NCBI GenBank assembly: GCA_016699875.1
Contig: CP064989.1
Span: 392,788-456,787 of the forward strand
Source of the DNA: Candidatus Moraniibacteriota bacterium
GTDB taxonomy: Bacteria; Patescibacteriota; Minisyncoccia; Moranbacterales; UBA1568
DNA: 64,000 nucleotides
Direction of reading: 5' to 3'
Part shown: in pieces, positions 2,579 through 58,986 of the stretch
Layout of the letters: every line of letters starts with the position of its first letter
Position numbering within the stretch: position 1 is the stretch's first letter
Made by a program: the position numbers and the translations under genes
Notes under the pieces: model-generated
Database searches by the model: none
What the model was told of the DNA's origin: nothing
What the model saw: only the letters and a program-made list of their open reading frames with translations

Positions 2579-3601
2579 CTACCTCCACCCCTGCCCGACA
2601 ATGCGCCAGACGATTTGTTCTTGTTGGACATTTACGACGCCGCCGGGAGTTTGTTGCGGGACGAGCTGCTGGAGTTTTTTGAATGCCAGAGAAATTCCGA
2701 AAGCGGCGCTTTTCTCGCGTGACTCGACAAAGGCAATGTTGTAGTCGCGCTGATTCTCGCTCCGCCCATCTATTTCCATTTCCGGATTCCACGGCTCGGT
2801 AAGATGCATATCGGCAGCATAGGACTCATAGAGCCGAGAGAGCCTCTCGGAAAGTTCCGACGCAGCATCAACAATCGTCGAGACGCTGAGATCCTCGCGC
2901 GCTTCTTTTCTCCCGATATAGTACTGATGCGAATAGAGTTTCTCCGTAAAGTGTTCGATAATGCTCGCAATCTTTTCTTTCGACATCGGGTGCGCGTGAC
3001 TCTTGAGCAGTCGCTCGGCAAGCACCTTGATGAGATTGTGCGTCCGATTCACATTGCCCAAGGCAAGCGGATGAATTGAGGGCGTCGCCTCCATGAATTT
3101 CATGAAGATATCCGCGAGTTTCTCGTCGCTCTTTACGCCAAATTTGTTCTTTGCAAGGTCAAAGTAGCTCATCACTTCTTCAACCGAAATCTGGATGCGT
3201 CCGTCCGGATTCTTGGGATCGGCGGGATTGAAAAAGTTCGATGTCGACGGATCGATCGGCGAAAGCTCGCTCATATCACTCATGACAATCTCATCCGCGC
3301 CGAGCGCAATCATCGTCGCCGCAGAGTGCGCTTTGTACGGCACAAGCACGCCGAATTCATCGCAGTATTCGCGTATCATCGAGACGAGCCGCCACGGCAC
3401 CATCGTGTCGCCGCCGGCGCTATAGAGCACGAGATCGATGCGCTTGACCTTTCCGATCGCGCGCAGTTGTTTGCTGACAATCGGAATGATATCCATCGCC
3501 ACCCGCGCATTGACCGGCCCCTGTCGATCACTCGTCACATATGCCACAACACGTGACCCTCGCAACATCTCTATCTCCTCGAAAATTTTTGAACGTTCCA
3601 T
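2579..3601 (-). CDS. ClpP/crotonase-fold serine protease, SDH (S49-like) family
   Basis: Internal ATG at 3601 (MERSKIFEEIEMLRGSRVVAYVTSD...). Motif LVLYSAGGDTMVPWRLVSMIREY...VLVPYKAHSAATMIALGADEIVM is typical of Clp-fold periplasmic serine proteases. Confidence 0.6.
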   Translation of the reverse strand: MERSKIFEEIEMLRGSRVVAYVTSDRQGPVNARVAMDIIPIVSKQLRAIGKVKRIDLVLYSAGGDTMVPWRLVSMIREYCDEFGVLVPYKAHSAATMIALGADEIVMSDMSELSPIDPSTSNFFNPADPKNPDGRIQISVEEVMSYFDLAKNKFGVKSDEKLADIFMKFMEATPSIHPLALGNVNRTHNLIKVLAERLLKSHAHPMSKEKIASIIEHFTEKLYSHQYYIGRKEAREDLSVSTIVDAASELSERLSRLYESYAADMHLTEPWNPEMEIDGRSENQRDYNIAFVESREKSAAFGISLAFKKLQQLVPQQTPGGVVNVQQEQIVWRIVGQGWR

Positions 3602-3729
3602 ATATATCTCGTGAATAAAAGAAATAGTCCTCGCAGTATACCGCGGAAGAAACCGCGAAACAAGACAAAAAGACAAGAGCGATACCCTAAAAGTACCGCT
3701 CTTGTTAATCGCTCTTTCCAAGTAAACGT

Positions 3730-4191
3730 TTACCGGCTCGTCATCACAGTGACACCGCCTTCGGCATTGCAGGCGCGAACGGTCACCATATTGTTAGAGT
3801 CTTTAACAATGGAATAGCCCGTGAGTGCCGCTGTACCGTTCGGATCGGTCGGAATGCTCTTCAGATAGCTCCCAAGTGCCGTCGAGAGATCGACGCAGTT
3901 GGTTGCACCCGCAACATTGCAGCCTCCGGTTGAAATAGCACATCCGGTTGTTGCTGTCCCGATTTGCATCTCCGTCGAAGTAATCGCCGCGGGGAAGATT
4001 CCCTTAGAATCGTTCACATACGTATGCACCGCTGAGAGAATATTTTGGATATCCGTCGTACGACGTGCATTTCGCGTATCTTGGAATCGCTTCGCCGGAT
4101 CAAGCGCAACGAATACCACTACCGCGAGCACCGCGAGCAAACCGATCACCAAGAGAATTTCCATGAGCGTAAACCCTTTCTGCTGCCTCAT
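3730..4191 (-). CDS. Type IV (major) pilin, class III signal peptide
   Basis: MRQQKG|FTLMEILLVIGLLAVLAVVVFVALDP: Gly-1, Phe+1, Glu+5 prepilin peptidase site and hydrophobic alpha1 helix. C-terminal Cys pairs (CAISTGGC, CVD...C) suggest a disulfide-bonded D-region. Confidence 0.8.
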   Translation of the reverse strand: MRQQKGFTLMEILLVIGLLAVLAVVVFVALDPAKRFQDTRNARRTTDIQNILSAVHTYVNDSKGIFPAAITSTEMQIGTATTGCAISTGGCNVAGATNCVDLSTALGSYLKSIPTDPNGTAALTGYSIVKDSNNMVTVRACNAEGGVTVMTSR

Positions 4192-4364
4192 ATATTTTTC
4201 ATTTATATGATTTAAACACTATCCATATTGCACATAAAATCCTTGCCACACACTGGCGAAGCAAGAGAATTACAAGATGATGCTATTATCTCACCATATC
4301 GTTTTTGTTTTTAACGGATAGATATAGAAACACTTTCCAGTATATCACATTTCTCAGAGTCGCC

Positions 4365-4850
4365 TCAGCGCGAAACGGAAATATTCGTCCCCCCTTCTGC
4401 ACTACAGGCCTTTACAGTTACGATGCCATTCGTATCAACCACCACGGAATACCGCGTCAGCGCCACTGTTCCGCCATTCGGATCTTTTGGAATCGTTTTC
4501 AGATATTTGGCAAGTGTTGAAGAAAAATCAATGCAATCGGTATTGCCGGCAACCGCACATCCCCCTGTTGAGAGAGCACACCCCGGCCCCGTACCAAGTT
4601 GTTTCTCCGTTGTCGAGAGACCCGCAGGCATCGTCCCCTGGTTGTCCACTATGGAGGTCTGGATTGCCGAAAGAATCGACTGCACATCGGTCGCACGCTT
4701 CGCATCTCGCACATCTCGGAAGCGTTTTGCCGGGTCGAGCGCCACCAAAACAACGGTTGCCAATACAGCAATCATCCCGATAACCAAAAGAATCTCAAGC
4801 AGCGTAAACCCTCGAGCAGATTGCGTCGGTTTTCTCAGGAGATGCTCCAT
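4365..4850 (-). CDS. Type IV pilin paralogue (tandem duplicate of 3730-4191)
   Basis: ATG at 4850 gives MEHLLRKPTQSARG|FTLLEILLVIGMIAVLATVVLVALDPAKRF. About 60 percent identical to the neighbouring pilin along the whole length, including conserved Cys positions. Confidence 0.8.
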   Translation of the reverse strand: MEHLLRKPTQSARGFTLLEILLVIGMIAVLATVVLVALDPAKRFRDVRDAKRATDVQSILSAIQTSIVDNQGTMPAGLSTTEKQLGTGPGCALSTGGCAVAGNTDCIDFSSTLAKYLKTIPKDPNGGTVALTRYSVVVDTNGIVTVKACSAEGGTNISVSR

Positions 4851-4869
4851 ATTTCGGAAAGAGACGGAT

Positions 4870-6360
4870 TTACAACGAGTTCGAACTGTCTGCTCCAAGT
4901 ACGAGAATCACATCTTCATTGGAATCGTCCGGCATATCTCGACGGCGTTCAAGTGAAAAATTCAACCCGGCATTCGCCAAGAGTTCATCGAGAAATTCAT
5001 CTGGCACGGATTCTTTCGCACGAACAAACGAGACAGCGAAGCGCGACAACGCCGTACGAACCCCGGATATCACAAAGTCTTCTTCGGAAAGATCCTGTCC
5101 AAGATTCGATGCCGCCCCGGGAACACCGCTCCCATTTTCAATAGCTACACGAAAACTCCCATGAGTTATCTCCTCCGCATCCTCCAATGGCAAATCCCCA
5201 CCAGACAAAGAAGCTGTATCATCACCTTCCTTATCGACCGGAGGAGCATCTTCTATCAGAGGAGCTTCTGATTGTGGAAGAGGCGCCGAATCGAGTACTC
5301 CCGATGGCATTTCTTGCCGATTCCGCAGCATCACTGCAATAGCCCCGCCTCCTGCGAGGACAACCGCTACGAAAGCCACGGCAAGCACTTTGGTACGATT
5401 TGAGACGAGCGAATGAGATCGATCAGCCCCGGACGATCGACCGGCGGACACATGTTCATCAAGCTTGTGCAAACCGAATCGCTCAGATGTTTCCGACTCA
5501 GCATTGGCAGATTCTTTCTCATCATCCGGCGAATTTTCCTCCGCAATACTCAACTCGACGGAAAGAACTTCCGAATCCCTTCCGGATATATCTTTCTTCG
5601 ATGCAAGTCCGATCAAAGCATTCTTATCGGAGAATTCTATTGAAAACCCGGATTGTTCCGCTCGCGCCCGATCGAAATCTATTAAATCATTTTCCGTACA
5701 AGAACCAACAAAGATGATCTTCGAGGGAGAAAAATTGAACCGATCCTTCATAAACCGCCCGACCGTTTCCACTGTCTCAAATGTCAGTCCCTGAAGAGAA
5801 GTGGCACTCGAAAGCACAATGCCTTTCATCACACCGGCCACAAAGAAAAATCCGCTCTTGTATACCAAGAGTATCGGCTCTTCCCGATCCGAAAACAGCC
5901 TAGCCACTGCGCATGACTCCGGCAATGAGACCGGTATGCGAAAGCCCGCCTCACGAAGCGCTGGTATCACCACGCGGGCAAACGACGCCACCAATGACAC
6001 AACCTGCACCGGACGCCCGAGCGATGAATCAGGCAACAAAATTTCCTGGTAATCCCAGGCGCTCTCGGCGAGATTTTCCGGAATAAATTTCCCCGCAAGG
6101 TCTCGAACCGCGAGGCGCTCCCTCTCCGAAGAGGAGTAGGTTTCTCCCTGTGGCAAAAAAAGTGTCGCGACATAGGAAAACTGCTCACCAACCAAAAGCC
6201 GCACCGTGCGACCGACTGCCGCTCGAGCCGTTCCCAAAACGGAACCGATATTTTCCGTTGTCCACGAGAGATTCACCAGCTCTGTCACTTTTTCACCCTG
6301 AATCGAAAAGCCTCGAACAGCATTCGGGGTTATAAAAAGAATTCCTTTGGTATCAAACAT
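4870..6360 (-). CDS. PilM-like (actin-fold) pilus assembly protein with one TM helix and a C-terminal LytR_C-like domain
   Basis: N-terminus GILFITPNAVRGFSIQ resembles the PilM/FtsA-like start. Central acidic linker, TM segment VLAVAFVAVVLAGGGAIAV, then a C-terminal FRVAIENGSGVPGAASNLGQDL...ILVLGAD region resembling LytR_C. Domain assignment is by motif only. Confidence 0.45.
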   Translation of the reverse strand: MFDTKGILFITPNAVRGFSIQGEKVTELVNLSWTTENIGSVLGTARAAVGRTVRLLVGEQFSYVATLFLPQGETYSSSERERLAVRDLAGKFIPENLAESAWDYQEILLPDSSLGRPVQVVSLVASFARVVIPALREAGFRIPVSLPESCAVARLFSDREEPILLVYKSGFFFVAGVMKGIVLSSATSLQGLTFETVETVGRFMKDRFNFSPSKIIFVGSCTENDLIDFDRARAEQSGFSIEFSDKNALIGLASKKDISGRDSEVLSVELSIAEENSPDDEKESANAESETSERFGLHKLDEHVSAGRSSGADRSHSLVSNRTKVLAVAFVAVVLAGGGAIAVMLRNRQEMPSGVLDSAPLPQSEAPLIEDAPPVDKEGDDTASLSGGDLPLEDAEEITHGSFRVAIENGSGVPGAASNLGQDLSEEDFVISGVRTALSRFAVSFVRAKESVPDEFLDELLANAGLNFSLERRRDMPDDSNEDVILVLGADSSNSL

Positions 6361-6420
6361 AGGACGACAAACCTTGTACCTTTCAGTATACACCCTTCCG
6401 CGTACGAAAGACGAGCGATA

Positions 6421-6798
6421 CTATGGAACCGCATGCCAGCTCACCATCGTCACCCCCGAACTCGCCCGAGTAAAGATCACTTCCGCTGCCTGATCAAAAG
6501 ATCCGCCAGTTCGCACAGTCGCCGTCCACTGACTTCCCGATTTCGAAATTGTCGCCACACAAGACCCCTCCGGACGCGCAATAGTCCCGCCGGCGTAGGA
6601 ATCGCTCCCTCGCGAAAAGAGCAGCATATCTTCGATGCATCCGTCGAGCATATCGCGAGCTTCCATTCCTTCAGAAATTGCGAAGGATGTCTGTGCATTG
6701 CCAACCGAAAGAATAGTAACCGTCACCCCGAGCGCAAGTGACACTGCGAGAAGAATAAACACCATGGAGAGAACGATGAAACCGCGAGACTGCCGCAT
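6421..6798 (-). CDS. Minor pilin / pseudopilin-like protein lacking Glu+5
   Basis: ATG at 6798: MRQSRG|FIVLSMVFILLAVSLALGV. Prepilin-type leader and hydrophobic helix with Ser at +5, as in PilX/ComGF-type minor pilins. Confidence 0.55.
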   Translation of the reverse strand: MRQSRGFIVLSMVFILLAVSLALGVTVTILSVGNAQTSFAISEGMEARDMLDGCIEDMLLFSRGSDSYAGGTIARPEGSCVATISKSGSQWTATVRTGGSFDQAAEVIFTRASSGVTMVSWHAVP

Positions 6799-6811
6799 AA
6801 ACGGAGAAATA

Positions 6812-7366
6812 TTAAAGCGGGTTTGATCGAAGTTCGGCAGAAGATCGGAGAGCGGTCGAGCTCGCATATTCAAAGCGATTCCCCGAGGATACCGTCCTAA
6901 GCATGATTTCGAAACCGATATTCTTTGAATTTCCATCAGATGAAGAGGCATTGATAAATACAAGAGAACTCACCGCAACATTCGTCGACGTCAACTCAAC
7001 AGGCGCCGAGGCGCCGACAGCAACCCGAAGCATCCTATTCGCAACATCGACCACAATCGGCGTATTCGGAGCAACTCCCTGAAGCGTCAGCTTCGATCCG
7101 GGAACCTCTGCCAAATTCACGCCGAAATTCGAATTCGCCGTATCGACGTCCGTCGCTTCTCGAATAAAGAAAGCAATCTTTTCAGATGCCAACCGCACAT
7201 TTGAAACAGCATCATTGTGTGTTCCGTTCTTAGCACCAATACCGATCATATTCCACCCAAACGCAACGAGCGATGTCAGAACAATCCCGGCGACACCGAC
7301 ATAGAGCAACATCTCTATGAGCGTAAATCCTTGCTGCCTCCGGATTCTTCCCGAAAATATCATCAT
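6812..7366 (-). CDS. Minor pilin, prepilin-type N-terminal cleavage/methylation domain
   Basis: MMIFSGRIRRQQG|FTLIEMLLYVGVAGIVLTSLVAFGW with Glu+5. Confidence 0.7.
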   Translation of the reverse strand: MMIFSGRIRRQQGFTLIEMLLYVGVAGIVLTSLVAFGWNMIGIGAKNGTHNDAVSNVRLASEKIAFFIREATDVDTANSNFGVNLAEVPGSKLTLQGVAPNTPIVVDVANRMLRVAVGASAPVELTSTNVAVSSLVFINASSSDGNSKNIGFEIMLRTVSSGNRFEYASSTALRSSAELRSNPL

Positions 7367-7383
7367 AGTTCCAAAATATGCGA

Positions 7384-8844
7384 CTACGGCGCAAACACAA
7401 CAAACTCCCCTGTGTTGGAAGCACTGGCACCAAGTACCTGGTCCAATGTATCACTATACGCAATGCCAAGAAGATCGGTGTTGCCGGAAACATCCACGGA
7501 ACTAACAATAGAAGGAGATGTCGGCGAGGAAATATCCACCACTTGAAATTCAGCTGAATTGCTGCTCGTCGCCAAGAAAGCAAGTGTATTGGAATTTCCA
7601 AACGTGAGCGCGATATCATTCACCGTATCTGACACGTTGACGGAACCAAGAAGCGAGGGGCTTCCCGGATTCGAAACGTTCACTGTGTATAAAGCATTCC
7701 CTCGCCCCACCAAGAGTGTCGTCCCCGCAAGCGACACCGTCGTCGCGTCGGTCGTTCCAGAAAGGTTGAGCGCTCCCACAAGAGACGGCGAGGATGGTAT
7801 TGCAATATTCACCACTTGTACTTCCCGCGTATCATTCGCCGATGCCACAGAGGCGAAGTTCCCCGAAACAACCACTTCATTTCCACTATCGCCGAGATTC
7901 ATTGAGCCGACCAGAACCGGCGAATTCGGCGTCGAAACATTTGCAATAACAAACTCATCATCCGAACCGATTGCTCGAACCACATATGCCGTTGCACCAA
8001 CCAAGAAAACACCAAGAGCATCTTCCGTACCGGGAGCATTGAGCATACCAACAACACTCGGTGAAGACGGCACGGCTATGTCCACCACTTGCAACTCTTG
8101 GTTATTGTTTTTGTTCGAAATAACCGCAATCCCGCCGGAAATAGAAATATCCGTTGGCGTTCCTGTCATTGCCAGGGACCCGACTATCATTGGATTCGAT
8201 GGATTACTCACATCAAAGATTAAGAAATTCGGACTCCCGCTCGGACGAATCATATAGGCGAAATTTCCCTGCGTTTGCATTCTAATGCCATCATTCGTTC
8301 CGGACACATCCACACTCGCAACCTGTGTCGGATTCATCCAACTGCCACCACTGCTTATTGGTAAACGCCAATCGTCAAGATACGATACAAATGAAACCGT
8401 ACTTGTTCGCGCCGCCGTAACCGGCCACGTCACCGTCGACGTCACTTTCCGACTCAAAGGATCGTTTGTTCCGCCACTCGAGACAATATTCCCACTGCCA
8501 TCGCGAGCAACCGGTGCCACCGATATCGTTCGCACATATTTCCCATAGGAGGTCGACGTGCCCGAAAATGCCCACGTACCTCCGGACCCTACACGATCAA
8601 TACCGGAAGTAGCTGTTGTTCCGAGCGACGCAAACGATTGATTCTTCATCGATCGAAGAGCCTCTATCCCTTCGTTCGCGTAATTCGACGCAATGCTTTC
8701 TTCTTCCGCAAGTCGATCCGCATCAAGTCCCTGCAAGAGGAGCGCGATCGATCCTGACGCGAACACCGCAAAAAGCGCCGCGCCGAGCAACACCTCGACA
8801 ACGGAAAACGCGCGAACGCAAACAGCTCGTTTCCAAATATCCAT
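7384..8844 (-). CDS. Pilin-anchored LVIVD-repeat (beta-propeller) protein, putative pilus-tip adhesin
   Basis: ATG at 8844: MDIWKRAVCVRA|FSVVEVLLGAALFAVFASGSIALLL (pilin-like helix, Glu+5). This is followed by about 9 repeats of the form ..FxxVSNPSxPxxVGSxxxxGxxxDIxxxGxxAxV.. (e.g. LQVVDIAVPSSPSVVGML, VQVVNIAIPSSPSLVGAL, FQVVDISSPTSPSIVSSV), characteristic of LVIVD repeats. Confidence 0.6.
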   Translation of the reverse strand: MDIWKRAVCVRAFSVVEVLLGAALFAVFASGSIALLLQGLDADRLAEEESIASNYANEGIEALRSMKNQSFASLGTTATSGIDRVGSGGTWAFSGTSTSYGKYVRTISVAPVARDGSGNIVSSGGTNDPLSRKVTSTVTWPVTAARTSTVSFVSYLDDWRLPISSGGSWMNPTQVASVDVSGTNDGIRMQTQGNFAYMIRPSGSPNFLIFDVSNPSNPMIVGSLAMTGTPTDISISGGIAVISNKNNNQELQVVDIAVPSSPSVVGMLNAPGTEDALGVFLVGATAYVVRAIGSDDEFVIANVSTPNSPVLVGSMNLGDSGNEVVVSGNFASVASANDTREVQVVNIAIPSSPSLVGALNLSGTTDATTVSLAGTTLLVGRGNALYTVNVSNPGSPSLLGSVNVSDTVNDIALTFGNSNTLAFLATSSNSAEFQVVDISSPTSPSIVSSVDVSGNTDLLGIAYSDTLDQVLGASASNTGEFVVFAP

Positions 8845-8875: not shown

Positions 8876-9622
8876 CTATCCCGTCCAATCAAGAAAACTT
8901 TTGAGCGCGCGACGAAGCGAGATAGCCGTCTCGCGATCAACAGAGAGCTTCGGAAGCGAAGTCAGTGAATTTACAAACAAGAGTCGCAAGAATTTCACGG
9001 CATTTTCCCCGAACGGAAGAGTGAGACGCGCTCCCTCCCGATGACGCGAGCACACAATGCCGCCAAGATCCGGACTAAAACAATATCGCTCGCCCGCCAC
9101 CAAAGACTCCTGTCCTGCTGCGCATCGACGCACTTCAATACGATAGCCGAGCCGATCAAGAAACTTCCAGAGAAACCCCTGCGAAAGCAGAAATACTTTC
9201 TCAGAAAATCGAGATACTTCATCACTCCCCTGCCGCGGCAATGCACTCACAATCTCAAGTGCTCGCAAGAATCCCAGAAGCAGCAAAAAAACTTCCGCAT
9301 CCACTTCGCCATCCTCCATGCGCCGATCAATGATAGATACCGCTTCGAGTGCTGTTCGAAGCGACACCTCATCTCTCCGTATATGTGGAAACATATTCTC
9401 CACAACCGCACTCGAGATATTCCCCCGCCCGCGGCTCCGCGCAATCGAAAGATCAATCAGCGAAAGCGTCTCCAAGTGCCCTGCAAGCTTCGCGGCTGGT
9501 TTCCGCGATCCGCGCCCCATCGCTTTCACCTTTCCTCCTTCCTGCGTGAAGAATGTATACAGCCGATCCGTCTCGCCGATATCCCGTTTCCCAAGCACGA
9601 TAGCAGTATAAGAGAAGTCCAT
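8876..9622 (-). CDS. recO: DNA repair protein RecO
   Basis: ATG at 9622: MDFSYTAIVLGKRDIGETDRLYTFFTQEGGKVKAMGRGSRKP, a RecO N-terminal OB-fold signature; length about 248 aa. Confidence 0.8.
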   Translation of the reverse strand: MDFSYTAIVLGKRDIGETDRLYTFFTQEGGKVKAMGRGSRKPAAKLAGHLETLSLIDLSIARSRGRGNISSAVVENMFPHIRRDEVSLRTALEAVSIIDRRMEDGEVDAEVFLLLLGFLRALEIVSALPRQGSDEVSRFSEKVFLLSQGFLWKFLDRLGYRIEVRRCAAGQESLVAGERYCFSPDLGGIVCSRHREGARLTLPFGENAVKFLRLLFVNSLTSLPKLSVDRETAISLRRALKSFLDWTG

Positions 9623-9662
9623 GGAAAAAAGAATTCGGAATAAAGAAGGAAGAAGTAGGAAA

Positions 9663-10196
9663 TTACGAATCACCGAGAAAGCTCATCGCTTTTCCCAGAA
9701 TTTCTTCATGTGATACCGACGTATCGAGAAAGATTTTCCTTCCCGGTATACACTCATAATCAAAATCTTCGTCTCCGAAGTTTGTTTTCAGTTCTAAACG
9801 TTTCTGATCGTGATGCGCGTCATGTCTCGGACGCTCTCGCATTCTTCGCATTCGTTCCTCTGTATGCACCAAACACACAATACTCTTTACCTCTACACCA
9901 TATTCATCAATCCATCGTTTAAATGTCTTTGGGTTATCCGGGTGATTGAACGGGCTTTCCAGAATAATATCCACCCCATTCCGGACCATGTCTTCCCCGA
10001 TCGCGAGAAGAAGTTGTATTGATATTCGGCCAAAGAGTTTACTTTCCTCCAGCGTCTTCCCATCAAGAAAATCATACAGTCGTTCTTTGATTGCATCCTT
10101 GTGCAGACAAACGATATGTAACTTCCGAGAAAGTTCCGCCGCAAGCGTCGTTTTTCCAGACCCAGGCAATCCGCACACAACAATTAATTTACTCAT
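9663..10196 (-). CDS. P-loop NTPase / AAA_33-like kinase family protein
   Basis: MSKLIVVCGLPGSGKTTLAAELSRKL Walker A; about 177 aa. Start ATG overlaps the ileS stop (ATGA). Confidence 0.6.
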   Translation of the reverse strand: MSKLIVVCGLPGSGKTTLAAELSRKLHIVCLHKDAIKERLYDFLDGKTLEESKLFGRISIQLLLAIGEDMVRNGVDIILESPFNHPDNPKTFKRWIDEYGVEVKSIVCLVHTEERMRRMRERPRHDAHHDQKRLELKTNFGDEDFDYECIPGRKIFLDTSVSHEEILGKAMSFLGDS

Positions 10197-13100
10197 ACCC
10201 GTTTCAGCCAAAAATGAAATACCCCTCCTTCAATCTTCACTTCCTCCGAATATTCAGAATTGGCAACTTCACCCTGCTTCACTTCCGTCGCCAATACCTC
10301 CCGCGCGATCATGTCTTGGAATCCGGAAATATTCTTCGACGCATCACCTTCAAACACCTCCTTCTTCCCATCATACCCAAGCACAATTCTGTCCTCCACA
10401 TTGAATCCCGCCTTCTTTCGCCCCTCCTGAATCGCCCGAATAATCTCCCTCGCCTCGCCTTCGAGCTTGAGTTCGGGAGTGATGTTAGTGTCCACAACTA
10501 CCACTGGATTATTTATATACGCCCTAGCCGAGACAACATTCACGTGAACAACAACATCAACACATTTAGCATTCAGTTCATCAGCTATAATAGCTTTGAA
10601 TTCTTGCGTCAGATTCATCTCAATTTCCGCCTTAACATTAGATATGGGCTGCCTCACCTTTATCTTCGCTTCCGCACGTTTCAAAAGTCCCACACTGACA
10701 ATCTCGCGAACCAATCTCATGTCTGTATTCAGTTTCTCATCAACCAAACCTTCATTCACTTCCGGAAAATCCGCCAAATGCACCGACTGTTCTCCGGTAA
10801 GATTCCGATACAACTCTTCCGCAATAAACGGCGTGAACGGCGCCAAGAGTTTCGAAAGCGTCACCAAAACATCATAGAGCGTTTGATACGCTTGTTCCTT
10901 ATCAACGTCATTTTCATTCTTCCAGAAGCGTTTTCTCGAACGACGAATGTACCAATTGGAAAGCTGATCAAGGAATACCTCTACTTTCTGCGTCGCCCCG
11001 TACACATCATACATTCCAAGTGCTCCATCAACATCGCGGATCACAAGTTGCAATTCGGAGAGAATCCACCGATCCATCACATTCGAAGCATTGAAATCGG
11101 AAGTGGAGCGATTTGGCTTCCAATTATCGACACTTGCGTAGGTTACAAAGAAGAGATACGAATTCCAGAGCATACGGAAGACGCGATTTTGTACATCGCG
11201 CATGCCTTTCACATCGAAGCGCTTTGGAAGTCCAGGCTGGTTGAGCGAGAACAAGAGCCAGCGAAGCGCGTCCGCGCCGTACTGATCAAACATCTCAAAC
11301 GGATCAACGATATTCCCCTTCGACTTCGACATCTTCTTGCCCTTCGAATCGAGAATATGCCCGAGACAGATCACGTTCTTGTACGCACGGTGTTCTTTCA
11401 CGATGCTCGCCTTTGCCAAGAGATTCTCGACCGCATGAAGCGTATAGAACCACCCGCGCGTCTGATCGATCGCTTCGCAGATATAGTCCGCCGGAAATGT
11501 TTTTCCGGTTTCGATATTTTTCTTTTCTTCGCCACTTGTCGATGCCGGATAGCCAAATTGCGCCAGAGGCATCGCGCCAGAGTCGAACCACACGTCCAAC
11601 ACTTCCGGCGTCCGGCGCATCGTACTACCGCACTCGCACGAAAACTCAACCTCGTCGATATACGGTTTGTGCAAATCATCGAGTTTCTTTCCGGAAAGTT
11701 TTTCCAATTCGGAGACAGATTCGATCACTCTCATTTTTCCGCACGACGCCGACTCGCACACCCAAATAGGAAGCGGCGTCCCCCAATACCGCTCACGCGA
11801 AATCGCCCAGTCCTTCACGCCTCGCAACCACTCGCCAAAGCGACCGTCTTTGATATGTTCCGGCACCCAATTGATCGATTCATTTCCTTTCGAGAGTTCC
11901 TCCCGCAATTCCGACATGCGGATAAACCACGAGGGCTTCGCATAATAGATAAGCGGCGTATCGCATCGCCAGCAGAACGGATACTCGTGTTCGTACGGTT
12001 CTTCCTTGAAAAGCAGTCCGCGATTCTTCAAATCTTCAATCACCAAGTCATCCACCGCGTATCGATTCTTGTCATTCATTTTCTTCACCGGAATCCCTTC
12101 ACACGCCGGAAGACCGAATCCTTTCTTCATCGTTCCATCTGTTTCAACCGTCAGCAGTGTTGGCAGATCATTCTCCCTCGCCACATTTGCATCATCTTCC
12201 CCGAACGCCGGCGCGATATGCACGATTCCTGTTCCTGAATCCGTCGTCACAAAATCTCCTGCAACGACCTTGAAACTTTTCTTCACATCTTCTTCTCCTG
12301 CAACATGAAAGAGTGGTTCATATCTAATTCCAATAAGACTCTTTGCCTTTATTCTTGTACCTGATGGAGACTCATAGCGGAAACCGCTACGCCCGGTCTT
12401 ACTAATATAGTCAGATTGTTCTTTAGAAATATATCCTCCTTCTTTTTTTCCAAGATTCAACAAAAATTCTTGCGAAAGAATGAGATATTCACTCTCACAG
12501 CCTTCTATAATTGATTCTTTCTTTTCTGCATCGTCCCACCATTTCAAGTATTCCCCATTGGGCGATCGTGAAAATTTCAAGACACGATATTCGGAATCCT
12601 CATTCACCGCGAGCGCCACATTTCCCGGCAACGTCCATGGCGTCGTCGTCCAGGCGAGAAAATACGTTTTATCATCCGTCGTAAAGTCGCCGATTTTCTG
12701 TCCGGGTATTGCTTTGAATTTCACATACACGGAGTTATCTGTCGTTTCTTTGTACCCTTGCGCCACTTCGTGCGACGAGAGCGCTGTCCCACATCGGTAA
12801 CAATACGGCACCACCTTGTGTCCCTTATAAATAAATGACTCGCCTTTTGCATTCTTCAATTTCGCAATCTGCGCAAGTTGCCACCAGAGCGACTCGATAT
12901 AGCTGTTCTCATAGGTGACATACGGGTGCTCCATATCCACCCAGTAGCCCATCCGCCGCGTGAGCTTCTCCCACAAGTCACGATACTCCCACACGCTTTC
13001 TTTGCATTTCTTATTAAACTCAATCACGCTCGCGCGCGCATCGCCCGGCACGATACTTTCGATCTCCTGTTTGTTCTTCAATCCCAAAGCCTTCTCCACC

Positions 13101-13384
13101 TGAAGCTCAACCGGAAGTCCGTGCGTATCCCACCCGGCCTTTCGCACCACGCGATAGCCCTTCATCGTTTTGTACCGCGGAATCACATCTTTAAAGGAGC
13201 GCGCCAACACATGGTGAAGCCCCGGCCTTCCATTGGCCGTCGGCGGTCCTTCATAGAATACAAAGTCTCCCTTCGGCGCATCCTTCTCCACCGACTTTTC
13301 AAAAATTTTCTCCCTCTCCCAAAACTTGAGAATTTCTTCTTCCATCTTCGGAAACGAAACCTTCGGATCAACTTTTTCAAACAT
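10193..13384 (-). CDS. ileS: Isoleucyl-tRNA synthetase (class I, type 2)
   Basis: PTANGRPGLHHVLARSFKD (HIGH-type), [10 protein letters not shown]1 editing region, 1063 aa from ATG at 13384 (MFEKVDPKVSFPKMEEEILKFWE). The six-frame start at 13417 is a TTG. Confidence 0.95.
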   Translation of the reverse strand: MFEKVDPKVSFPKMEEEILKFWEREKIFEKSVEKDAPKGDFVFYEGPPTANGRPGLHHVLARSFKDVIPRYKTMKGYRVVRKAGWDTHGLPVELQVEKALGLKNKQEIESIVPGDARASVIEFNKKCKESVWEYRDLWEKLTRRMGYWVDMEHPYVTYENSYIESLWWQLAQIAKLKNAKGESFIYKGHKVVPYCYRCGTALSSHEVAQGYKETTDNSVYVKFKAIPGQKIGDFTTDDKTYFLAWTTTPWTLPGNVALAVNEDSEYRVLKFSRSPNGEYLKWWDDAEKKESIIEGCESEYLILSQEFLLNLGKKEGGYISKEQSDYISKTGRSGFRYESPSGTRIKAKSLIGIRYEPLFHVAGEEDVKKSFKVVAGDFVTTDSGTGIVHIAPAFGEDDANVARENDLPTLLTVETDGTMKKGFGLPACEGIPVKKMNDKNRYAVDDLVIEDLKNRGLLFKEEPYEHEYPFCWRCDTPLIYYAKPSWFIRMSELREELSKGNESINWVPEHIKDGRFGEWLRGVKDWAISRERYWGTPLPIWVCESASCGKMRVIESVSELEKLSGKKLDDLHKPYIDEVEFSCECGSTMRRTPEVLDVWFDSGAMPLAQFGYPASTSGEEKKNIETGKTFPADYICEAIDQTRGWFYTLHAVENLLAKASIVKEHRAYKNVICLGHILDSKGKKMSKSKGNIVDPFEMFDQYGADALRWLLFSLNQPGLPKRFDVKGMRDVQNRVFRMLWNSYLFFVTYASVDNWKPNRSTSDFNASNVMDRWILSELQLVIRDVDGALGMYDVYGATQKVEVFLDQLSNWYIRRSRKRFWKNENDVDKEQAYQTLYDVLVTLSKLLAPFTPFIAEELYRNLTGEQSVHLADFPEVNEGLVDEKLNTDMRLVREIVSVGLLKRAEAKIKVRQPISNVKAEIEMNLTQEFKAIIADELNAKCVDVVVHVNVVSARAYINNPVVVVDTNITPELKLEGEAREIIRAIQEGRKKAGFNVEDRIVLGYDGKKEVFEGDASKNISGFQDMIAREVLATEVKQGEVANSEYSEEVKIEGGVFHFWLKRV

Positions 13385-13394
13385 AGGGATTTGA

Positions 13395-13700
13395 ATGGCT
13401 ATATGGTTGAAAAACAAAAAATCCTCAACGCAAAACCTGCGCCAAGGACGTCGGAACTTCGTCGCAACGTGGTACCACCTTGTTTCCCCCGATTTGCCGA
13501 AACGACAAAAGTCAGGGCTTCATATTCGCTCTAACGGGCGATCCCGGGAGAATCTACTCTCTCGCTGTTTATCACAACAGCGAGATTTCTCTCTCCGGCT
13601 CCGAGGCGATACATCCGTCCAAAGACAGATCCTCATCACTGCCATTACAGAAAACGTATCACAATTCCCCTCCCCAAAGCAAGCTCCCTCTGGACAACTT
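13395..13700 (-). promoter_or_regulatory. Candidate T-box riboswitch leader of ileS
   Basis: The minus strand reads ...GGGGGAAACAAGGUGGUACCACGUUGCGACG (plus coords 13468-13481), matching the T-box core AGGGUGGNACCGCG at 11 of 13 fixed positions. The UGGU tetranucleotide is complementary to the ACCA end of tRNA-Ile. An upstream 9-bp hairpin CUCGCUGUU-GUGAUAA-AACAGCGAG with AUA/AUU triplets in flanking loops could be Stem I. A downstream U-run (GGAUUUUUUGUUUUUC) precedes the start codon. Boundaries are approximate. Confidence 0.4.
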
Positions 13701-25200: not shown

Positions 25201-25797
25201 ATGTACCCGAAAACATTCAAAAAACTCATCGAGCATTTCTCGTCACTTCCGTCCGTAGGACCGAAAATGGCAGAGCGGCTCACGCTCCATCTCTTCAAGC
25301 AGTCCGAAGAAACTCTCAACGATTTCGCCGAAACACTCCGCACTCTTACTGAACTGCAAACGTGTTCGCAGTGTTTTCACATTGCCGAAGGCGATCTCTG
25401 CGGTATTTGCAACGACACCAATCGAGACGATTCGATGCTCTGCGTCGTCGAAGAACCCATGGATGTGATCGCTATCGAGCGAACCAATCACTATACCGGT
25501 CGCTATCACGTCCTCGGCGGAACACTCGATGTCTCTCCGAAGAAACAATCGGAACATACTCTGCGCATTGCCGAATTGCTCCAGCGTATCGAACACGAAT
25601 CGATCCGAGAAGTCATCCTCGCCACCAACCCCACCACGGAGGGCGACTTAACCGCGCTCTATTTGAGCCGAAAGCTCGCCCCCTTCCGTATAAAGATAAC
25701 CCGCCTCGGTCGCGGACTCTCTACCGGCGGCGACATCGAATACGCCGACGAATTCACTCTCTCATCCGCACTTACCCACAGAAGAGAGTTGGTATAA
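25201..25797 (+). CDS. recR: Recombination protein RecR
   Basis: LPSVGPKMAERL (HhH), CSQCFHIAEGDLCGICND (C4 zinc finger), Toprim region. Confidence 0.9.
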   Translation: MYPKTFKKLIEHFSSLPSVGPKMAERLTLHLFKQSEETLNDFAETLRTLTELQTCSQCFHIAEGDLCGICNDTNRDDSMLCVVEEPMDVIAIERTNHYTGRYHVLGGTLDVSPKKQSEHTLRIAELLQRIEHESIREVILATNPTTEGDLTALYLSRKLAPFRIKITRLGRGLSTGGDIEYADEFTLSSALTHRRELV

Positions 25798-37833: not shown

Positions 37834-37955
37834 ACACTTGGTTGAGCAAGAAATAAGGGTGTCATTTTCCGGACACTCTTTCTTATTGGAGCTGTATCCT
37901 TGCCAATAGCCCATTGCTCCCGTATACTCCCAAGGAATTTTCAAGCTCATCCGCT

Positions 37956-39068
37956 ATGCATGACAGCCTATTCCTCCACTGCCTCGGAAAAATATCCGGT
38001 GTCGGCGCCGAAAAACTTCGGAAAATCGCCGCTCACTTCGAGACATTCGAATCGGCATGGGACGCGCCACTCGAAGAATTCATCCGCGCTGGCATTCCAA
38101 GCAAACTTGCCGAGACAATCGTTCACACTCGCAAACACATCTCACCGGAAAGAGAATTCGAAACTCTGGAACAGCACCGGGTTCGCCTCATCTCCAGAGA
38201 AAGCGAGAATTACCCCGCTCTCCTCGCAGAAATCCCCAATCCGCCGGCACTACTCTATCTTCGTGGAGACATTGATTTCAACAGACGTCCCATGATCACA
38301 CTCGTCGGTACCCGGAAACCCACCGAATACGGTATCGGCATCGCGAGAGAATTTGCGAGCGAGCTCGCAAAAAGCGGCATCGCAGTGATCTCAGGTATGG
38401 CGCTCGGCATCGACAAAGCAGCGCACCAGGGCGCCCTCGATGGCGGAGGCGTCACGATTGCCGTTCTCGGCAACGGACTCGACGACGCCTCGATTTCGCC
38501 GCGCACCCACCTCGATCTCGCTCACACCATCAGCCTTCATGGCGCGCTGCTCTCCGACTACCCGCCGGGAACCGGCGCTTCCGAAGGCACCTTCCCCGCG
38601 CGCAATCGCATCATGGCAGGATTGTCGCTCGGCACCGTCGTCATCGAAGCATCGGAAAAAAGCGGCACGCTCATCACGGCAAACCTCGCACTCGATTTCA
38701 ATCGCGAAGTCTTCGCCGTTCCGGGATCAATCTATTCCGAGAACTCCCGCGGACCGCACGCGCTCATCAAGAGAGGAGCTATTCTCACTGCAAGTCTCTC
38801 AGATATTCTCGATGCCCTCCCGCTTTCGAAAGAGCGCGAAAATCGCGAAATACTTTCCGAACAAACCGAATCCGATCAGGAAAATATCTCCGCTGATGAA
38901 GAACGTCTTCTCAAAATATTGGGAAGTGATACCATGCACATTGACGCGCTCATCAAACACTCTACACTGGAAACATCGAACGCACTCTCCGCACTCGCCT
39001 TTCTCGAAATGAAAGGCTTGGTAAAAAACATCGGCAACATGCACTATATTCGAACATATCGAGTATAA
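37956..39068 (+). CDS. dprA: DNA processing protein DprA (Smf)
   Basis: ITLVGTRKPTEYGIGIAREFASELAKSGIAVISGMALGIDKAAHQGALDGGGVTIAVLGNGLD (Rossmann DprA core) plus C-terminal winged helix. Confidence 0.88.
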   Translation: MHDSLFLHCLGKISGVGAEKLRKIAAHFETFESAWDAPLEEFIRAGIPSKLAETIVHTRKHISPEREFETLEQHRVRLISRESENYPALLAEIPNPPALLYLRGDIDFNRRPMITLVGTRKPTEYGIGIAREFASELAKSGIAVISGMALGIDKAAHQGALDGGGVTIAVLGNGLDDASISPRTHLDLAHTISLHGALLSDYPPGTGASEGTFPARNRIMAGLSLGTVVIEASEKSGTLITANLALDFNREVFAVPGSIYSENSRGPHALIKRGAILTASLSDILDALPLSKERENREILSEQTESDQENISADEERLLKILGSDTMHIDALIKHSTLETSNALSALAFLEMKGLVKNIGNMHYIRTYRV

Positions 39069-55765: not shown

Positions 55766-57394
55766 TTAACGGGGATCATTCACATCGGTAATTACGCCGG
55801 AAAGATATTCCGGCTTCAGTTCGTACACATCCGCAAACGGATAGTGATCAACCAATCGGTATCCTTCCAGAAAACCGACATTGTCCTTAAGAAGCCTCCA
55901 GGTCGAGTCACTATCAGAATTACTGCGCACTACGATCCACCTTGCCCAGTTATCCGGATCCTGAATAGCGCTCTCGTAATACGATCCTGTTCCCTCGTGA
56001 ATAAATCGACCCATAGGCAAACCCGAGGAGAAAATAACCGAATCATGCGAAGCGGCGGAAATGAGAATATACCCCTTTTGCTGTCCGGCATTGTCGCGAA
56101 GCCATGCTGCAACTTCCGTCACATTCTTCTGGCTCGCCCCGGTTCGTCCATCGTCAATCGTCACCGCATCCTGACTCGAAAACTGAAAGAACAGCACAAA
56201 GAGAAGCGTCCCAATCAAGACCGGTCGAACCGGCACCGCCCGATGAACAAGATAGCCGACAAAAACCGCGACCGAAGCCATCATGAGAATTCCATAGCGC
56301 ACATTGAACCACGTATCGCCAGAAAGCCCTTGAATAAACAATACGGAATGGCCCAAGTAGAGGGCGAGAATATTGAAGAGAAGCGGCGCAAAGAGCGCAA
56401 GCGATGCAAACCGAGCACGAGAATCTATCTTCCGATCGAAAAAGAAAATGCACGCTCCAATCGCCCCAAGCAACAACACAAACGTATCTGTATTGTACGC
56501 CAAGGCGTAAAAGTACATCTTTACCGAAAGAAACCAGCTCCCTTTGGTAAGCAACACGCCCGCCGCCGCCAAATCATCTTGCTGCGCATGCGCCGAATAG
56601 GGACCGAACGCAAAATAGAGCGGATCGCCGAAAATAAGGAGGTTCCACAAGAGCCAGAGAAACACCCCGAACCCGGCAAGCGTTGCAAAGAGCACGAATG
56701 TCCCCTCAGCTTTCCGATATCCGCCCGACTTCCACGCAGAGACAAATAGCATGAGAGATGCGAAGAAGAAAAGAAACCATCCATCATACCGAATCAGCGT
56801 CGAAAACATGACAAACAAGGCGGAGAGCAAAAGAAACGGAAGTCTCCTGCGCGTATACCACAAGAGCAGAAAATACGATGCTGCCATGGTAGTGCCAATC
56901 AGTGCGAGTTCAGTCATCGCTGTCGACTGGAGATACAGTATGTTCAAATTCGCCGCAAAGACAATGACGCCCACATACCGTCCCAAAAGTCCCACGCCAA
57001 CCTCACGCAAAAAGAGAAAGAGCAGAACACCTGTAGCCACATAGGCAATCATTGACCAGAGTGCGCCGGCAAGTCCGGAGTGCCACATGAAATCATTCCA
57101 AATCGTGAGCGCCATGAGAAGGTGCGTAAATGGTAGCCACACGCTCCCCAACTGCGCAAACCCCGGACGAAGCCCCTCTACTACACGCCGACCGATATCG
57201 AGATGCGAGCGAGCATCGTTATAGGCGAGTCCCAAACCATTGTGGTAGTACTGCGCAAATGCCCACACGGAAACAGCCGAGAGCATACTTACCACAATCG
57301 CTGTCCCATGTCTATCAAAAAAAAGCCGAAGCGATTCCACGCGCTCTCTGGACACGGAGAAAATCGAGAATGTTTTGTTCAAAGAGTATTTCAT
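55766..57394 (-). CDS. GT-C-fold polytopic membrane glycosyltransferase (ArnT/PMT-like, GT39/83-type)
   Basis: About 13 predicted TM helices in the first 400 aa followed by a soluble C-terminal domain; architecture of dolichyl/undecaprenyl-phosphate-sugar-dependent glycosyltransferases. Confidence 0.55.
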   Translation of the reverse strand: MKYSLNKTFSIFSVSRERVESLRLFFDRHGTAIVVSMLSAVSVWAFAQYYHNGLGLAYNDARSHLDIGRRVVEGLRPGFAQLGSVWLPFTHLLMALTIWNDFMWHSGLAGALWSMIAYVATGVLLFLFLREVGVGLLGRYVGVIVFAANLNILYLQSTAMTELALIGTTMAASYFLLLWYTRRRLPFLLLSALFVMFSTLIRYDGWFLFFFASLMLFVSAWKSGGYRKAEGTFVLFATLAGFGVFLWLLWNLLIFGDPLYFAFGPYSAHAQQDDLAAAGVLLTKGSWFLSVKMYFYALAYNTDTFVLLLGAIGACIFFFDRKIDSRARFASLALFAPLLFNILALYLGHSVLFIQGLSGDTWFNVRYGILMMASVAVFVGYLVHRAVPVRPVLIGTLLFVLFFQFSSQDAVTIDDGRTGASQKNVTEVAAWLRDNAGQQKGYILISAASHDSVIFSSGLPMGRFIHEGTGSYYESAIQDPDNWARWIVVRSNSDSDSTWRLLKDNVGFLEGYRLVDHYPFADVYELKPEYLSGVITDVNDPR

Positions 57395-58986
57395 AGACGC
57401 TTTTTCTCAAGAAGACTCTCCCGAACCAGTCCGACAAATAACAGCCCGGATCCGAACACGAGCAGAACTACTATCCCCCAATAATATTGCTCGGCACTCA
57501 CATATCGATGTACCCACGCCCGATAAAGAAACGACTTCGAACCGCTCTCGCGCAAATAATCCCAATTCCGCTCAGCGGTATATTTCTCAACCCTTCCGGA
57601 CAACGCCTCTATCGAGAGCACCTCGTGCTCCGGAGGATTCGCATTTGAGGTAATCGCCCCAAGCGTATTCACCGACATCGAATATGCCAAAACAACAAAG
57701 AATGCTCCCAGAAAAAAGAAGTTCTTGCGCCACTCGGTAAGTGCGATACCAATGCCAATACCAAGAACCGCATAACTCGGGATAAGATATCGCGATCCGA
57801 ACGCCCACCCACCCCACGGGTCACCCCACATTGAGTAAAGCAGAAGATTAATCATGACTGTTGCAATCAGAACATTTGCTACGCCGTATTTATCCTGCCT
57901 TCGAGCGAGAAACACCAAACCAAAGACGCCAAACAATATGACCGGTGCATAGAAGATCACCCCGCGATCTGAACTCACAAGATGTGTCAACAGTCCCTGT
58001 AAAAGATCCCGGGTTTTGAAGAATCCAACCGCAGATTTCGCCTCATTTCCGTTAACACCATCAATAGATGCCGCTTCCAAATCGCGAGATATAGCCTGTC
58101 CATCTGCTGAAAGCTCTGTCACGGCTGGCAACGTTCCCGAAAGCTTCAACGCACCGCCATTCACTGTCGAGTTATACCACAAGAACCCCGCCAGCGGCAC
58201 CACAAGCACAAGGAGACTCGCAACAAGAACCGGGCGAAACATAACCCGAATCTTTTCCCCAATAGAAACAAACATAATCCTGGAAACTGCAAACACACCA
58301 ATAGGTGCCAAGAGAAAGAAATTCGGATTATCGACACTCACAGACAATGACACGCAAAACCATATAGCAACAAGCGACCGCCACCCGCTCGAGCGAAGAA
58401 GCAAAAGAAGCGAAACAAGCAATAGAAAAACTGTTATATGATGCTGGTAGAGTGTCGTCCCGTACGCAAACGCTGGTGTCCCGAAAAGAAAAGCGAGCGA
58501 TCCGAGCGAAGCTGCCAGCGGACGCGCACCAAGCCGAAGCGCAATCGATCGCACCAGCCAAGCATTCAATAGCGCAAACAAAGCAATCATTGAAAACGCC
58601 CCGACTTGCGAAGCACCAAGCCACTTCCCTAAAAGATATCCCGGAGCAACCAAAAGAGACACCGTCGGCGCAAAAAGCGACGCATATCGACCGTCGGGAG
58701 TCAATCCCAAGTCCGGCGTTACAGATCGCGCCACCGGAAGAGAAAAGAAGAACGAGTGATCTTCAATCACCGAGTAAAGCAACGCGAATCGTCCGCGTTC
58801 GGGAGAGAGCTCGAGTGGTCCACCTTTCCGCCACTCAGCAGTATTCAAATCGCCCGATGTTGGGTTCCCGGGCAACCCACGCAAAGAGAGAGCGAAAATA
58901 ATCACCGAGAAGAGAATAAAGCCACCCACTATGACTAGATTATTTCCCCGAACTAATGAGAGAATTCTTTTCATACAAGAGAACAT
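57391..58986 (-). CDS. Second GT-C-fold membrane glycosyltransferase (ArnT-like)
   Basis: Polytopic; start overlaps the previous gene's stop (ATGA); similar hydropathy architecture; tandem to 55766-57394. Confidence 0.55.
   Translation of the reverse strand: MFSCMKRILSLVRGNNLVIVGGFILFSVIIFALSLRGLPGNPTSGDLNTAEWRKGGPLELSPERGRFALLYSVIEDHSFFFSLPVARSVTPDLGLTPDGRYASLFAPTVSLLVAPGYLLGKWLGASQVGAFSMIALFALLNAWLVRSIALRLGARPLAASLGSLAFLFGTPAFAYGTTLYQHHITVFLLLVSLLLLLRSSGWRSLVAIWFCVSLSVSVDNPNFFLLAPIGVFAVSRIMFVSIGEKIRVMFRPVLVASLLVLVVPLAGFLWYNSTVNGGALKLSGTLPAVTELSADGQAISRDLEAASIDGVNGNEAKSAVGFFKTRDLLQGLLTHLVSSDRGVIFYAPVILFGVFGLVFLARRQDKYGVANVLIATVMINLLLYSMWGDPWGGWAFGSRYLIPSYAVLGIGIGIALTEWRKNFFFLGAFFVVLAYSMSVNTLGAITSNANPPEHEVLSIEALSGRVEKYTAERNWDYLRESGSKSFLYRAWVHRYVSAEQYYWGIVVLLVFGSGLLFVGLVRESLLEKKRL

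Follow-up and report, generated by a model that had tools for sequence, protein, structure and literature searches.

Type IV pili (T4P) are the best-supported devices for host attachment and DNA uptake in ultra-small episymbiotic bacteria, and their occurrence in the Candidate Phyla Radiation (CPR) is well known, with PilB/T, PilC, PilN, PilO and a "GspL domain PilM" listed there (Meheust et al. 2019). The pilus machinery of episymbionts has so far been described only for Saccharibacteria, which possess two T4P systems, separate PilM, PilN and PilO and a separate pilin locus; a β-propeller minor pilin with a non-canonical leader acts there as the host-binding factor of the second system, T4P-2 (PMC12206443). 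When considered from the side of the alignment and scaffold subunits, three kinds of described protein are relevant here: PilM, which is cytoplasmic, actin-like, encoded beside pilins in the pilus operon and part of the PilMNO(P) assembly (5EOU/5EOX, 2YCH, 3JC8); GspL/EpsL (1YF5, 4PHT, 5TKW) of the type II secretion system (T2SS), in which a reduced actin-like cytoplasmic domain is followed by one transmembrane (TM) helix and a small α/β ectodomain; and the proteins VirR (Rv0431) and Cei (Rv2700), in which one TM helix leads to an extracytoplasmic LytR_C domain. The locus described here, a six-gene cluster at positions 3730-8844 of a 64,000-nucleotide stretch of DNA (contig CP064989.1; the whole stretch is called the window below), encodes in its fourth gene, g4, a predicted fusion of a PilM-like domain, a TM helix and a LytR_C domain. 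We consider it probable that the cluster is the pilin-plus-scaffold module of a Patescibacteria-type T4P, in which g4 would act as the scaffold; what would be new is an alignment or scaffold subunit with a different ectodomain.

An earlier note, made from the DNA letters alone, had read g4 as a PilM-like N-terminus joined by a TM helix to a LytR_C-like C-terminus, and had staked this on the appearance of both folds in structure prediction. Both are present, and AlphaFold2 (AF2), Foldseek, the family profile and Pfam agree on the architecture; the annotation with hidden Markov models (HMMs) that it had also proposed gave LytR_C above its cut-off and no match to the PilM_2 and PilN models. The AF2 model of g4, built from ten homologues, has a mean predicted local distance difference test score (pLDDT) of 67, with the domains at 70-88. 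Residues 1-255 form two RNase-H-like halves, the first with a β-α-β-β-α insert, and are actin-like. When this N-terminal domain is compared with the PDB by Foldseek, the top ten matches are all PilM (1.1e-12 to 1.8e-10), beginning with Pseudomonas aeruginosa PilM (5eou, 1.1e-12) and continuing with the M. xanthus and T. thermophilus proteins (2ych, 1.8e-10). The cytoplasmic domain of EpsL/GspL (cyto-EpsL/GspL) comes next, from 8.7e-10 (1yf5) to 6.7e-7, with a target-normalised TM-score (TMt) of 0.57-0.63 and a root-mean-square deviation (rmsd) of ~5.3 Å, and gives the best size-normalised fit (TMt 0.62-0.63); FtsA follows, and after it generic sugar kinases and MreB.

PilM is also the only sequence-profile match of the N-terminal domain: a profile of 109 family sequences matches P. 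aeruginosa PilM at 5.6e-5 over PilM residues 55-183. In Pfam, g4 itself gives no PilM_2 match at E<=0.1 and only four of the 109 members match that model weakly (best 4.1e-5), the other 105 failing to do so; at E<=0.01 the family has no Pfam match except LytR_C and the weak PilM_2, and thus none to a GspL family. In comparison with PilM, the domain is ~100 residues shorter, it is without subdomain 2B (judged by the order of secondary-structure elements in the AF2 model), and the alignment columns at the first hairpin and at the start of the second half, which in actin-fold ATPases contain the DxG phosphate loops, are occupied by T/S-K/R-x and Y/H-K-x, neither Asp nor Gly being conserved. GspL has lost nucleotide binding. 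Without subdomain 2B and without conserved phosphate-binding motifs, the g4 domain has therefore probably undergone the same loss and serves as a scaffold, not as a nucleotide-binding switch.

The most conserved linear stretch of the family is the VLNL motif (Table 1), in which L266 is kept in 97, K255 in 89, G260 in 85 and N267 in 80 of the 109 sequences. One subgroup reads VLNVNLLP at this place. The motif resembles the PilM-binding N-terminus of PilN (INLLP), a resemblance only, and it is by this motif alone (VLNL, with NLLP in some members, against MARINLLPWREE) that g4 recalls PilN. The eight N-terminal residues of PilN bind a channel in PilM (PMC6325625), and the PDB 5eou construct carries PilN 1-12 (MARINLLPWREE) fused C-terminally to PilM, the same order as in g4. 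Residues 259-319 and 350-397, on the two sides of the TM helix, are predicted by AF2 to be disordered acidic or Pro-rich linkers (pLDDT <50). A second linker motif, E-R-F-x-x-H-x-L-D-E-R (residues 286-303), is invariant in 10/10 close-family sequences and sits between the VLNL motif and the TM helix, in an AF2-predicted disordered segment.

Beyond the membrane, the LytR_C domain scores 27.8-27.9 bits in Pfam against a gathering cut-off of 22.2, and it is present in 108/109 sampled family members. Residues 400-496 are modelled as a β-α-β-β-α-β(-β) domain, which reaches a pLDDT of 82.8 when modelled alone and whose only meaningful Foldseek matches are the LytR_C structures 2m5y (Rv0431/VirR) and 6q10 (probability 1.00, TM-score 0.57-0.58); the family profile finds the same two in the PDB, at 7.3e-8 and 1.1e-4. 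A disguised PilN, PilO or GspL ferredoxin-like domain was considered for this part and rejected at Foldseek's sensitivity, only LytR_C structures being returned and no PilN, PilO, GspL or GspM ectodomain standing among the top 50 matches. Pfam detects no catalytic LCP domain (LytR_cpsA_psr) in g4 or in its 109 relatives. Taken from models and profiles together, the PilM-like–LytR_C fusion is real.

This architecture borrows from each of the described proteins while departing from all of them. Canonical PilM binds a separate PilN, whereas in g4 the PilM-like domain continues, within one chain, into a TM helix and an ectodomain. The overall plan is that of GspL, but the GspL ectodomain is ferredoxin-like and that of g4 is LytR_C; moreover, unlike the T2SS setting, the organism is presumed to be monoderm and the operon is without a secretin. 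In VirR and Cei, which act in wall remodelling and vesiculation, the cytoplasmic part is only a short tail, whereas g4 places a 255-residue PilM-like domain before the TM helix and is a pilus-operon gene. Finally, the T4P-2 of the Saccharibacteria strain TM7x offers the closest parallel at the level of the locus, with pilin genes that stand apart from the motor genes and comprise a major pilin, PilA2, and several minor pilins; it differs by its separate PilM, PilN and PilO genes, and no LytR_C fusion has been described there.

The fusion, which the earlier note did not recognise from canonical operons, is not peculiar to this locus: in a large family of Patescibacteria operons, it is the usual occupant of this position. 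In an exhaustive HMM profile search, at least 1,384 representatives of clusters pass E<=1e-3, 336 of them E<=1e-10, and many are 400-500 aa long and match end to end. Word-based searches with g4 or the 109-sequence profile gave only 12 close relatives, and it was the exhaustive search that exposed the family; a genome scan for related loci returned one locus only. In databases the members are named "LytR C-terminal domain-containing protein", "LytR family transcriptional regulator" or "hypothetical protein". No paper on a PilM-like–LytR_C fusion was found when LytR_C was searched together with pilin, pilus, PilM or CPR, in a coverage that was incomplete, so that an earlier description is possible. 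The closest named g4 homologue belongs to a Ca. Moraniibacteriota metagenome-assembled genome and another relative to Ca. Parcubacteria. These affiliations support the small-genome lineage that the earlier note had supposed, namely a Patescibacteria group whose nearest named homologues are those of Moraniibacteriota/Moranbacteria.

Table 1. Coordinates of the genes, protein domains and non-coding elements of the cluster (window positions unless a locus of a relative, L001 to L004, is named).
Feature	Coordinates	Strand	Description
g1	8844..7384	-	486 aa large minor pilin; PilV-like N-terminal pilin part and LVIVD-repeat β-propeller
g2	7366..6812	-	184 aa minor pilin, leader G↓FTLIEM
g3	6798..6421	-	125 aa small pilin-like protein, leader G↓FIVLS, without Glu5, two conserved Cys
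g4	6360..4870	-	496 aa PilM-like–TM–LytR_C protein, putative single-chain alignment/scaffold subunit
g4 residues 1-255	5596..6360	-	predicted cytoplasmic actin-like (PilM/GspL-like) domain; AF2, Foldseek, family profile
g4 residues 255-270	5551..5598	-	family-wide motif K-x-D-x-x-G-x-D-E-x-V-L-N-L, right after the PilM-like domain
g4 residues 321-349	5314..5400	-	single TM helix; AF2 long helix, hydrophobic segment VLAVAFVAVVLAGGGAIAVML
g4 residues 403-491	4888..5154	-	predicted extracytoplasmic LytR_C domain; Pfam LytR_C (PF13399)
g5	4850..4365	-	161 aa proximal major-pilin paralogue, leader G↓FTLLEI, 4 Cys
Extended -10-like element	4347..4339	-	TGATATACT; g5-g6 spacer
Invariant 29-nt block	4322..4294	-	TCTATCCGTTAAAAACAAAAACGATATGG; bulged 7-bp inverted repeat around an A-rich loop
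g6	4191..3730	-	153 aa distal major pilin, leader G↓FTLMEI, 4 Cys
Intrinsic-terminator-like hairpin	3673..3705	-	15-bp stem, then CTTTTTGT; 25 nt past the g6 stop
g6 copies compared	window 3730-4191; L001:11029-11493; L003:3351-3812; L004:5000-5461		

The six open reading frames (ORFs) all lie on the minus strand at the coordinates first described, with start codons placed by orthologue lengths and leader motifs; gaps within the cluster measure 13-60 nt, except for the 173-nt spacer ahead of g6. The co-directional orientation, the pilin leaders and the Pfam N_methyl matches bear out the description of the cluster as T4P-like. All six genes are under purifying selection, with ratios of nonsynonymous to synonymous substitution (dN/dS) of 0.03-0.19 by the Nei-Gojobori method against relatives. 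For comparisons of synteny and orthology, loci of relatives (L001-L005 and L007-L012) were used, and these place the cluster within a larger unit. In the full operons of L008, L009 and L012, whose g4 homologues are only 24-26% identical, a sensor kinase (PAS-HisKA) and one or two response regulators are followed by PilB (MshEN+T2SSE, ~560 aa) and PilC (T2SSF, ~360 aa), and then by pilins of 141-160, 580-733 and 180-187 aa, a 124-127-aa protein, the g4 homologue and, last, a major pilin. In L002 the same series follows a PilB fragment and PilC. According to phmmer, g1, g2, g3, g4 and g5/g6 correspond one-to-one with genes at the corresponding operon positions, whereas the window has no orthologue of the first small pilin that the full operons encode. 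Judged by this collinearity, the window holds the distal part of a conserved operon, separated here from the motor genes and the first small pilin. The same separation is seen in L001, L003 and L004 (g4 67-71% identical), which share the window's arrangement ileS-kinase-recO-g1..g6-SDH protease, and in L010, an independent lineage, where the module stands without pilB or pilC nearby and two pilins follow the g4 homologue.

The statement of the earlier note that no PilB, PilC or PilT is encoded in the window was borne out by two routes. About 50 plausibly coding ORFs of >=150 aa, out-of-frame ORFs overlapping annotated genes being left out, were scanned with Pfam and contained no T2SSE, T2SSF or Peptidase_A24 domain, hence no PilT or PilD family; PilB and PilC taken from three related operons found no match by tblastn in any frame of the 64 kb (best E 0.036-0.05). 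The scanned ORFs comprise housekeeping and envelope genes such as ileS, recO, recR, dprA, dnaX, dnaB, topA and groEL, and further cysS, a trpS/tyrS-type synthetase, tsf, rpsB, prfA, prmC, relA/spoT, glycosyltransferases and a copper ATPase.

As to regulation, the PAS-HisKA kinase and stand-alone receiver-domain regulators lie directly upstream of pilB in the full operons (L008:159-1978, L009:1837-4035, L012:1398-3989), which suggests two-component control of the pilus encoded there; no kinase/response-regulator pair adjoins the module of the window. It may be added that L001 (CAYQPQ010000002.1) is labelled "uncultured Bdellovibrionales bacterium", a label that looks wrong, since the locus is collinear with the window (ileS 77-81%, g6 94-95%) and its relatives are labelled Moraniibacteriota/Moranbacteria.

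Four textbook prepilin leaders had been counted in the cluster, and this tally has to be refined. The canonical form G↓FTL(I/L/M)E (the arrow marks the cleavage site) is found in g2, g5 and g6, each of which matches Pfam N_methyl or TIGR02532 (g2, N_methyl at 1.1e-6), while the leader of g1, A↓FSVVE, is only a close variant, which retains Glu5 but has Ala at -1, where the orthologues have G or A, and g3 is a pilin-like protein without Glu5. A six-frame motif scan of the complete 64 kb returned Glu5-type class III leaders at exactly four places, every one of them within the cluster, and their confinement is therefore not due to chance. The g2 protein has orthologues at the same position in L009, L008, L007, L010 and L002 (1.6e-47 to 1.3e-16).

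The large minor pilin g1 joins an N-terminus that resembles PilV (NCBIfam, 0.0095) to LVIVD repeats, which Pfam detects in five stretches at 75.4 bits against a cut-off of 20.2 (2.1e-21), alongside a weak Beta_propel match. In L009, L008 and L002, orthologues of g1 are found at the corresponding place in the operon (phmmer, 4e-43 to 4e-34), and the dN/dS of g1 is 0.14. PilX2 of TM7x is likewise a large minor pilin with a C-terminal β-propeller and a non-canonical leader, although its propeller is of the RCC1 type and that of g1 is LVIVD; by this analogy, g1 is a candidate tip adhesin. The small protein g3 matches nothing in Pfam or NCBIfam, and an orthologue of 124-135 aa lies directly upstream of the g4 homologue in L001, L003-L005, L007-L010 and L012. 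Minor pilins of the GspK/PilX type are without Glu5, and we infer that g3 is a Glu5-less minor pilin of the GspK/PilX/ComGG type. A PilO/GspM-like partner of g4 was also considered for this gene and rejected, since its N-terminus is a helix of the pilin type, G↓F(I/V)A(L/I), and Pfam gives no match.

The two major pilins g5 and g6 had been described as tandem duplicates, and they are true paralogues, 60% identical by BLASTP (92/153, 8e-69) with four aligned Cys. For g6 the N_methyl score is 28.7 bits; for g5 it is 20.2 bits, slightly below the cut-off, with TIGR02532 passing its own. Each paralogue is nearer to its own orthologue than to its neighbour, and the duplication is for this reason, on sequence distances, old. 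The slot they occupy is variable elsewhere: L008 has, between the g4 homologue and the full-length pilin, a 78-aa ORF (L008:9815-10051) that corresponds only to the C-terminal globular part of a major pilin (phmmer 6e-23 to g5), and L010 also has two pilins there. Duplications and partial copies thus seem to arise readily in this slot, and the copies could represent silent cassettes or products of decay.

Within the module, conservation is highest for the distal pilin g6, which has 345 homologues in a word-based search (named for Moranbacteria, Levybacteria and "Patescibacteria group"). In the assembly collection, no gene is recorded whose product is exactly the g6 protein. The pilin shares 93-95% amino acid identity with its orthologues in L001, L003 and L004, against 77-81% for IleRS and 67-71% for g4 between the same lineages, and its dN/dS is 0.027-0.035 at dS 0.94-1.39; g5 is 79-85% identical to its own orthologues with a dN/dS of 0.07, and the remaining genes, including ileS (0.145), range over 0.11-0.19. 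Even across operons whose g4 homologues share only 24-28% identity, the pilin keeps 45-57%. Recent transfer or gene conversion was rejected as the source of the 94-95% identity, because dS (0.94-1.39) is saturated like that of the neighbours, and the conservation therefore comes from selection. Such constraint is seldom seen in a surface filament and suggests either a conserved ligand or very tight packing; it fits DNA uptake at least as well as host-specific adhesion, and does not decide between them.

Ahead of g6, the spacer contains an extended -10-like element and a 29-nt block that is unchanged in the alignment of the L001 and L003 spacers, where synonymous sites are saturated and the rest of the spacer is variable; the exact core of the block is present in L001, L003 and L004. 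It has no Rfam match, and a consensus scan places a second promoter-like site at 4314..4285. These elements are probably g6's own promoter plus a leader or operator. The hairpin behind g6 is the probable end of the transcription unit, and it is truly intergenic if, as is most likely, the downstream gene starts at 3601. That gene encodes an SDH-type ClpP-like serine protease (2579-3601, minus strand), directly 3' of the pilin terminator; the L001 orthologue shares 89% identity with it, and synteny is kept in L001 and L003/L004. Its ORF is listed with a start at 3721, which is probably too far upstream, overlapping the hairpin, and 3601 is the likeliest start because the orthologues measure 340-342 aa.

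Placed together, these parts can be arranged into a working model. PilD-processed pilins would wait in the membrane, where g2, g3, g1 and a GspH-like small pilin encoded elsewhere would prime assembly and end at the tip, which would expose the LVIVD propeller of g1 as an adhesin, in analogy with PilY1 and TM7x PilX2. The main filament subunit would be g6, with g5 possibly the second. On the cytoplasmic side of the membrane, g4 would dock with its PilM-like domain on the PilB/PilC motor-platform, and the VLNL motif may fill the groove in which canonical PilM receives the N-terminus of PilN. The TM helix and the long, flexible acidic and Pro-rich linkers would then bring LytR_C to the wall zone, where it could oligomerise and/or anchor the machine in the monoderm envelope. 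VirR of M. tuberculosis interacts through LytR_C with itself and with Lcp proteins, at sites of nascent wall in the mycobacterial envelope (PMC11832169). One g4 chain would in this manner replace PilM and PilN, and apparently PilO too, a GspL-like solution with an ectodomain from cell-wall biology, while PilB, PilC and the prepilin peptidase would have to come from elsewhere in the genome. Going one step further, it may tentatively be proposed that the whole constitutes a pilus subtype of its own in Patescibacteria of the Parcubacteria/Moranbacteria type, with a PilM-derived, nucleotide-free chain in place of PilM, PilN and PilO, wall coupling through LytR_C, mimicry of PilN binding by VLNL, a disulfide-bonded pilin whose constraint, tighter than that on IleRS, would come from a conserved ligand such as DNA, and a swappable, host-specific propeller tip.

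Several observations weigh against the view of g4 as the scaffold of a pilus machine. The model confidence of the N-terminal domain is moderate (pLDDT ~65-88) and its superposition on PilM is loose (rmsd 8-10 Å, TMt 0.44-0.47); the smaller cyto-GspL fits better (TMt 0.62), and the exact subfamily of the domain is uncertain for that reason. That ATP binding has been lost is concluded from alignment columns and not from a ligand-bound structure. The LytR_C fold is unlike the ectodomains of PilN, PilO and GspL, so that functional equivalence rests on position and topology; the VLNL motif is short, and when the linker and TM region was tried as a PilN, none of ten segments gave a PilN HMM match at E<=10. 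Precomputed Pfam assignments show no PilM, PilN or PilO in four of the operons, but the genomes may encode them elsewhere, and PilN and PilO families have been reported in CPR (Meheust et al. 2019). PilB, PilC and PilD are not in the window. Finally, one member of the g4 family, in L011, stands alone without pilus genes. This protein (L011:10001-11428; RJQ24417.1, "LytR family transcriptional regulator", Ca. Parcubacteria) lies beside a phage-type integrase, and a second LytR_C protein of 274 aa is encoded 4 kb away (L011:15684-16508).

Among the alternatives, one concerns the use of the pilus: the module might build a short competence (Com-like) pseudopilus for DNA uptake, neither adhesive nor motile, with the conservation of the pilin arising from DNA binding or uptake. 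The proximity of recO, 31 nt upstream on the same strand with the synteny kept in L001, the presence of dprA and recR inside the window, a major-pilin dN/dS of 0.03 that is unlike that of typical host-facing pilins, weak ComG and GspG/H matches of the pilins and the link between CPR T4P and competence (PMC6744442) all speak for it. Com systems, however, are without a PilM-like component, the large β-propeller minor pilin is adhesin-like by the PilY1/PilX2 analogy, and recO, dprA and recR belong to the housekeeping set of small genomes, the full operons elsewhere not lying beside recO. On balance we regard this use as unlikely, although it would be compatible with the proposed machinery.

A different objection is directed at g4 itself, which could be a cell-envelope factor, comparable to those of the LCP pathway, that merely lies among pilin genes and has no role in the pilus machine. 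The database names of its relatives, the action of solo LytR_C proteins in mycobacterial wall homeostasis and the orphan member beside an integrase agree with such a role, but two independent methods identify the N-terminal domain as a PilM homologue, the gene occupies the slot between a Glu5-less small pilin and a major pilin in 10/11 judgeable contexts across 24-28% identity, and the operons contain no other PilM-like gene, so that we hold this explanation to be very improbable. Least credible of all is a decaying operon remnant that lost its motor genes and makes no pilus, for although pilB, pilC, pilT and pilD are missing from the 64 kb and the first small pilin has no orthologue here, six intact genes are under purifying selection at saturated dS, the split arrangement is kept in L001 and L003/L004 and occurs independently in L010, the promoter-like element and terminator are conserved, and split T4P loci are normal, TM7x having four.

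Some neighbouring genes should also be mentioned. Upstream of the cluster, ileS, a gene for an AAA_33/zeta-toxin-like kinase and recO run head-to-tail into g1 (8876-13417, minus strand) with overlaps or gaps of <=31 nt; the order ileS-kinase-recO-g1 is found in L001 as well, and recO may share a transcript with the pilus module. The window also holds dprA (37914-39068) and recR (25201-25797). Far from the cluster lie two neighbouring ORFs of 542 and 531 aa (55766-58986, minus strand) that give no Pfam match at E<=1e-3; they are flanked on one side by a gene for a CarboxypepD_reg-domain protein and on the other by a series of genes for glycosyltransferase, methyltransferase and polysaccharide deacetylase, and possibly encode uncharacterised envelope-glycan proteins.

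For the family as a whole, the recognition of g4 and its relatives as a putative PilM-derived pilus component would correct a systematic mis-annotation, and LytR_C would gain a second biological context besides that of the LCP wall ligases. The strong constraint on the major pilin contradicts the usual picture of fast-evolving pilins and offers a testable clue to the ligand of the filament. For the organism, the fusion hints at how a minimal monoderm envelope may anchor a pilus motor by means of one protein.

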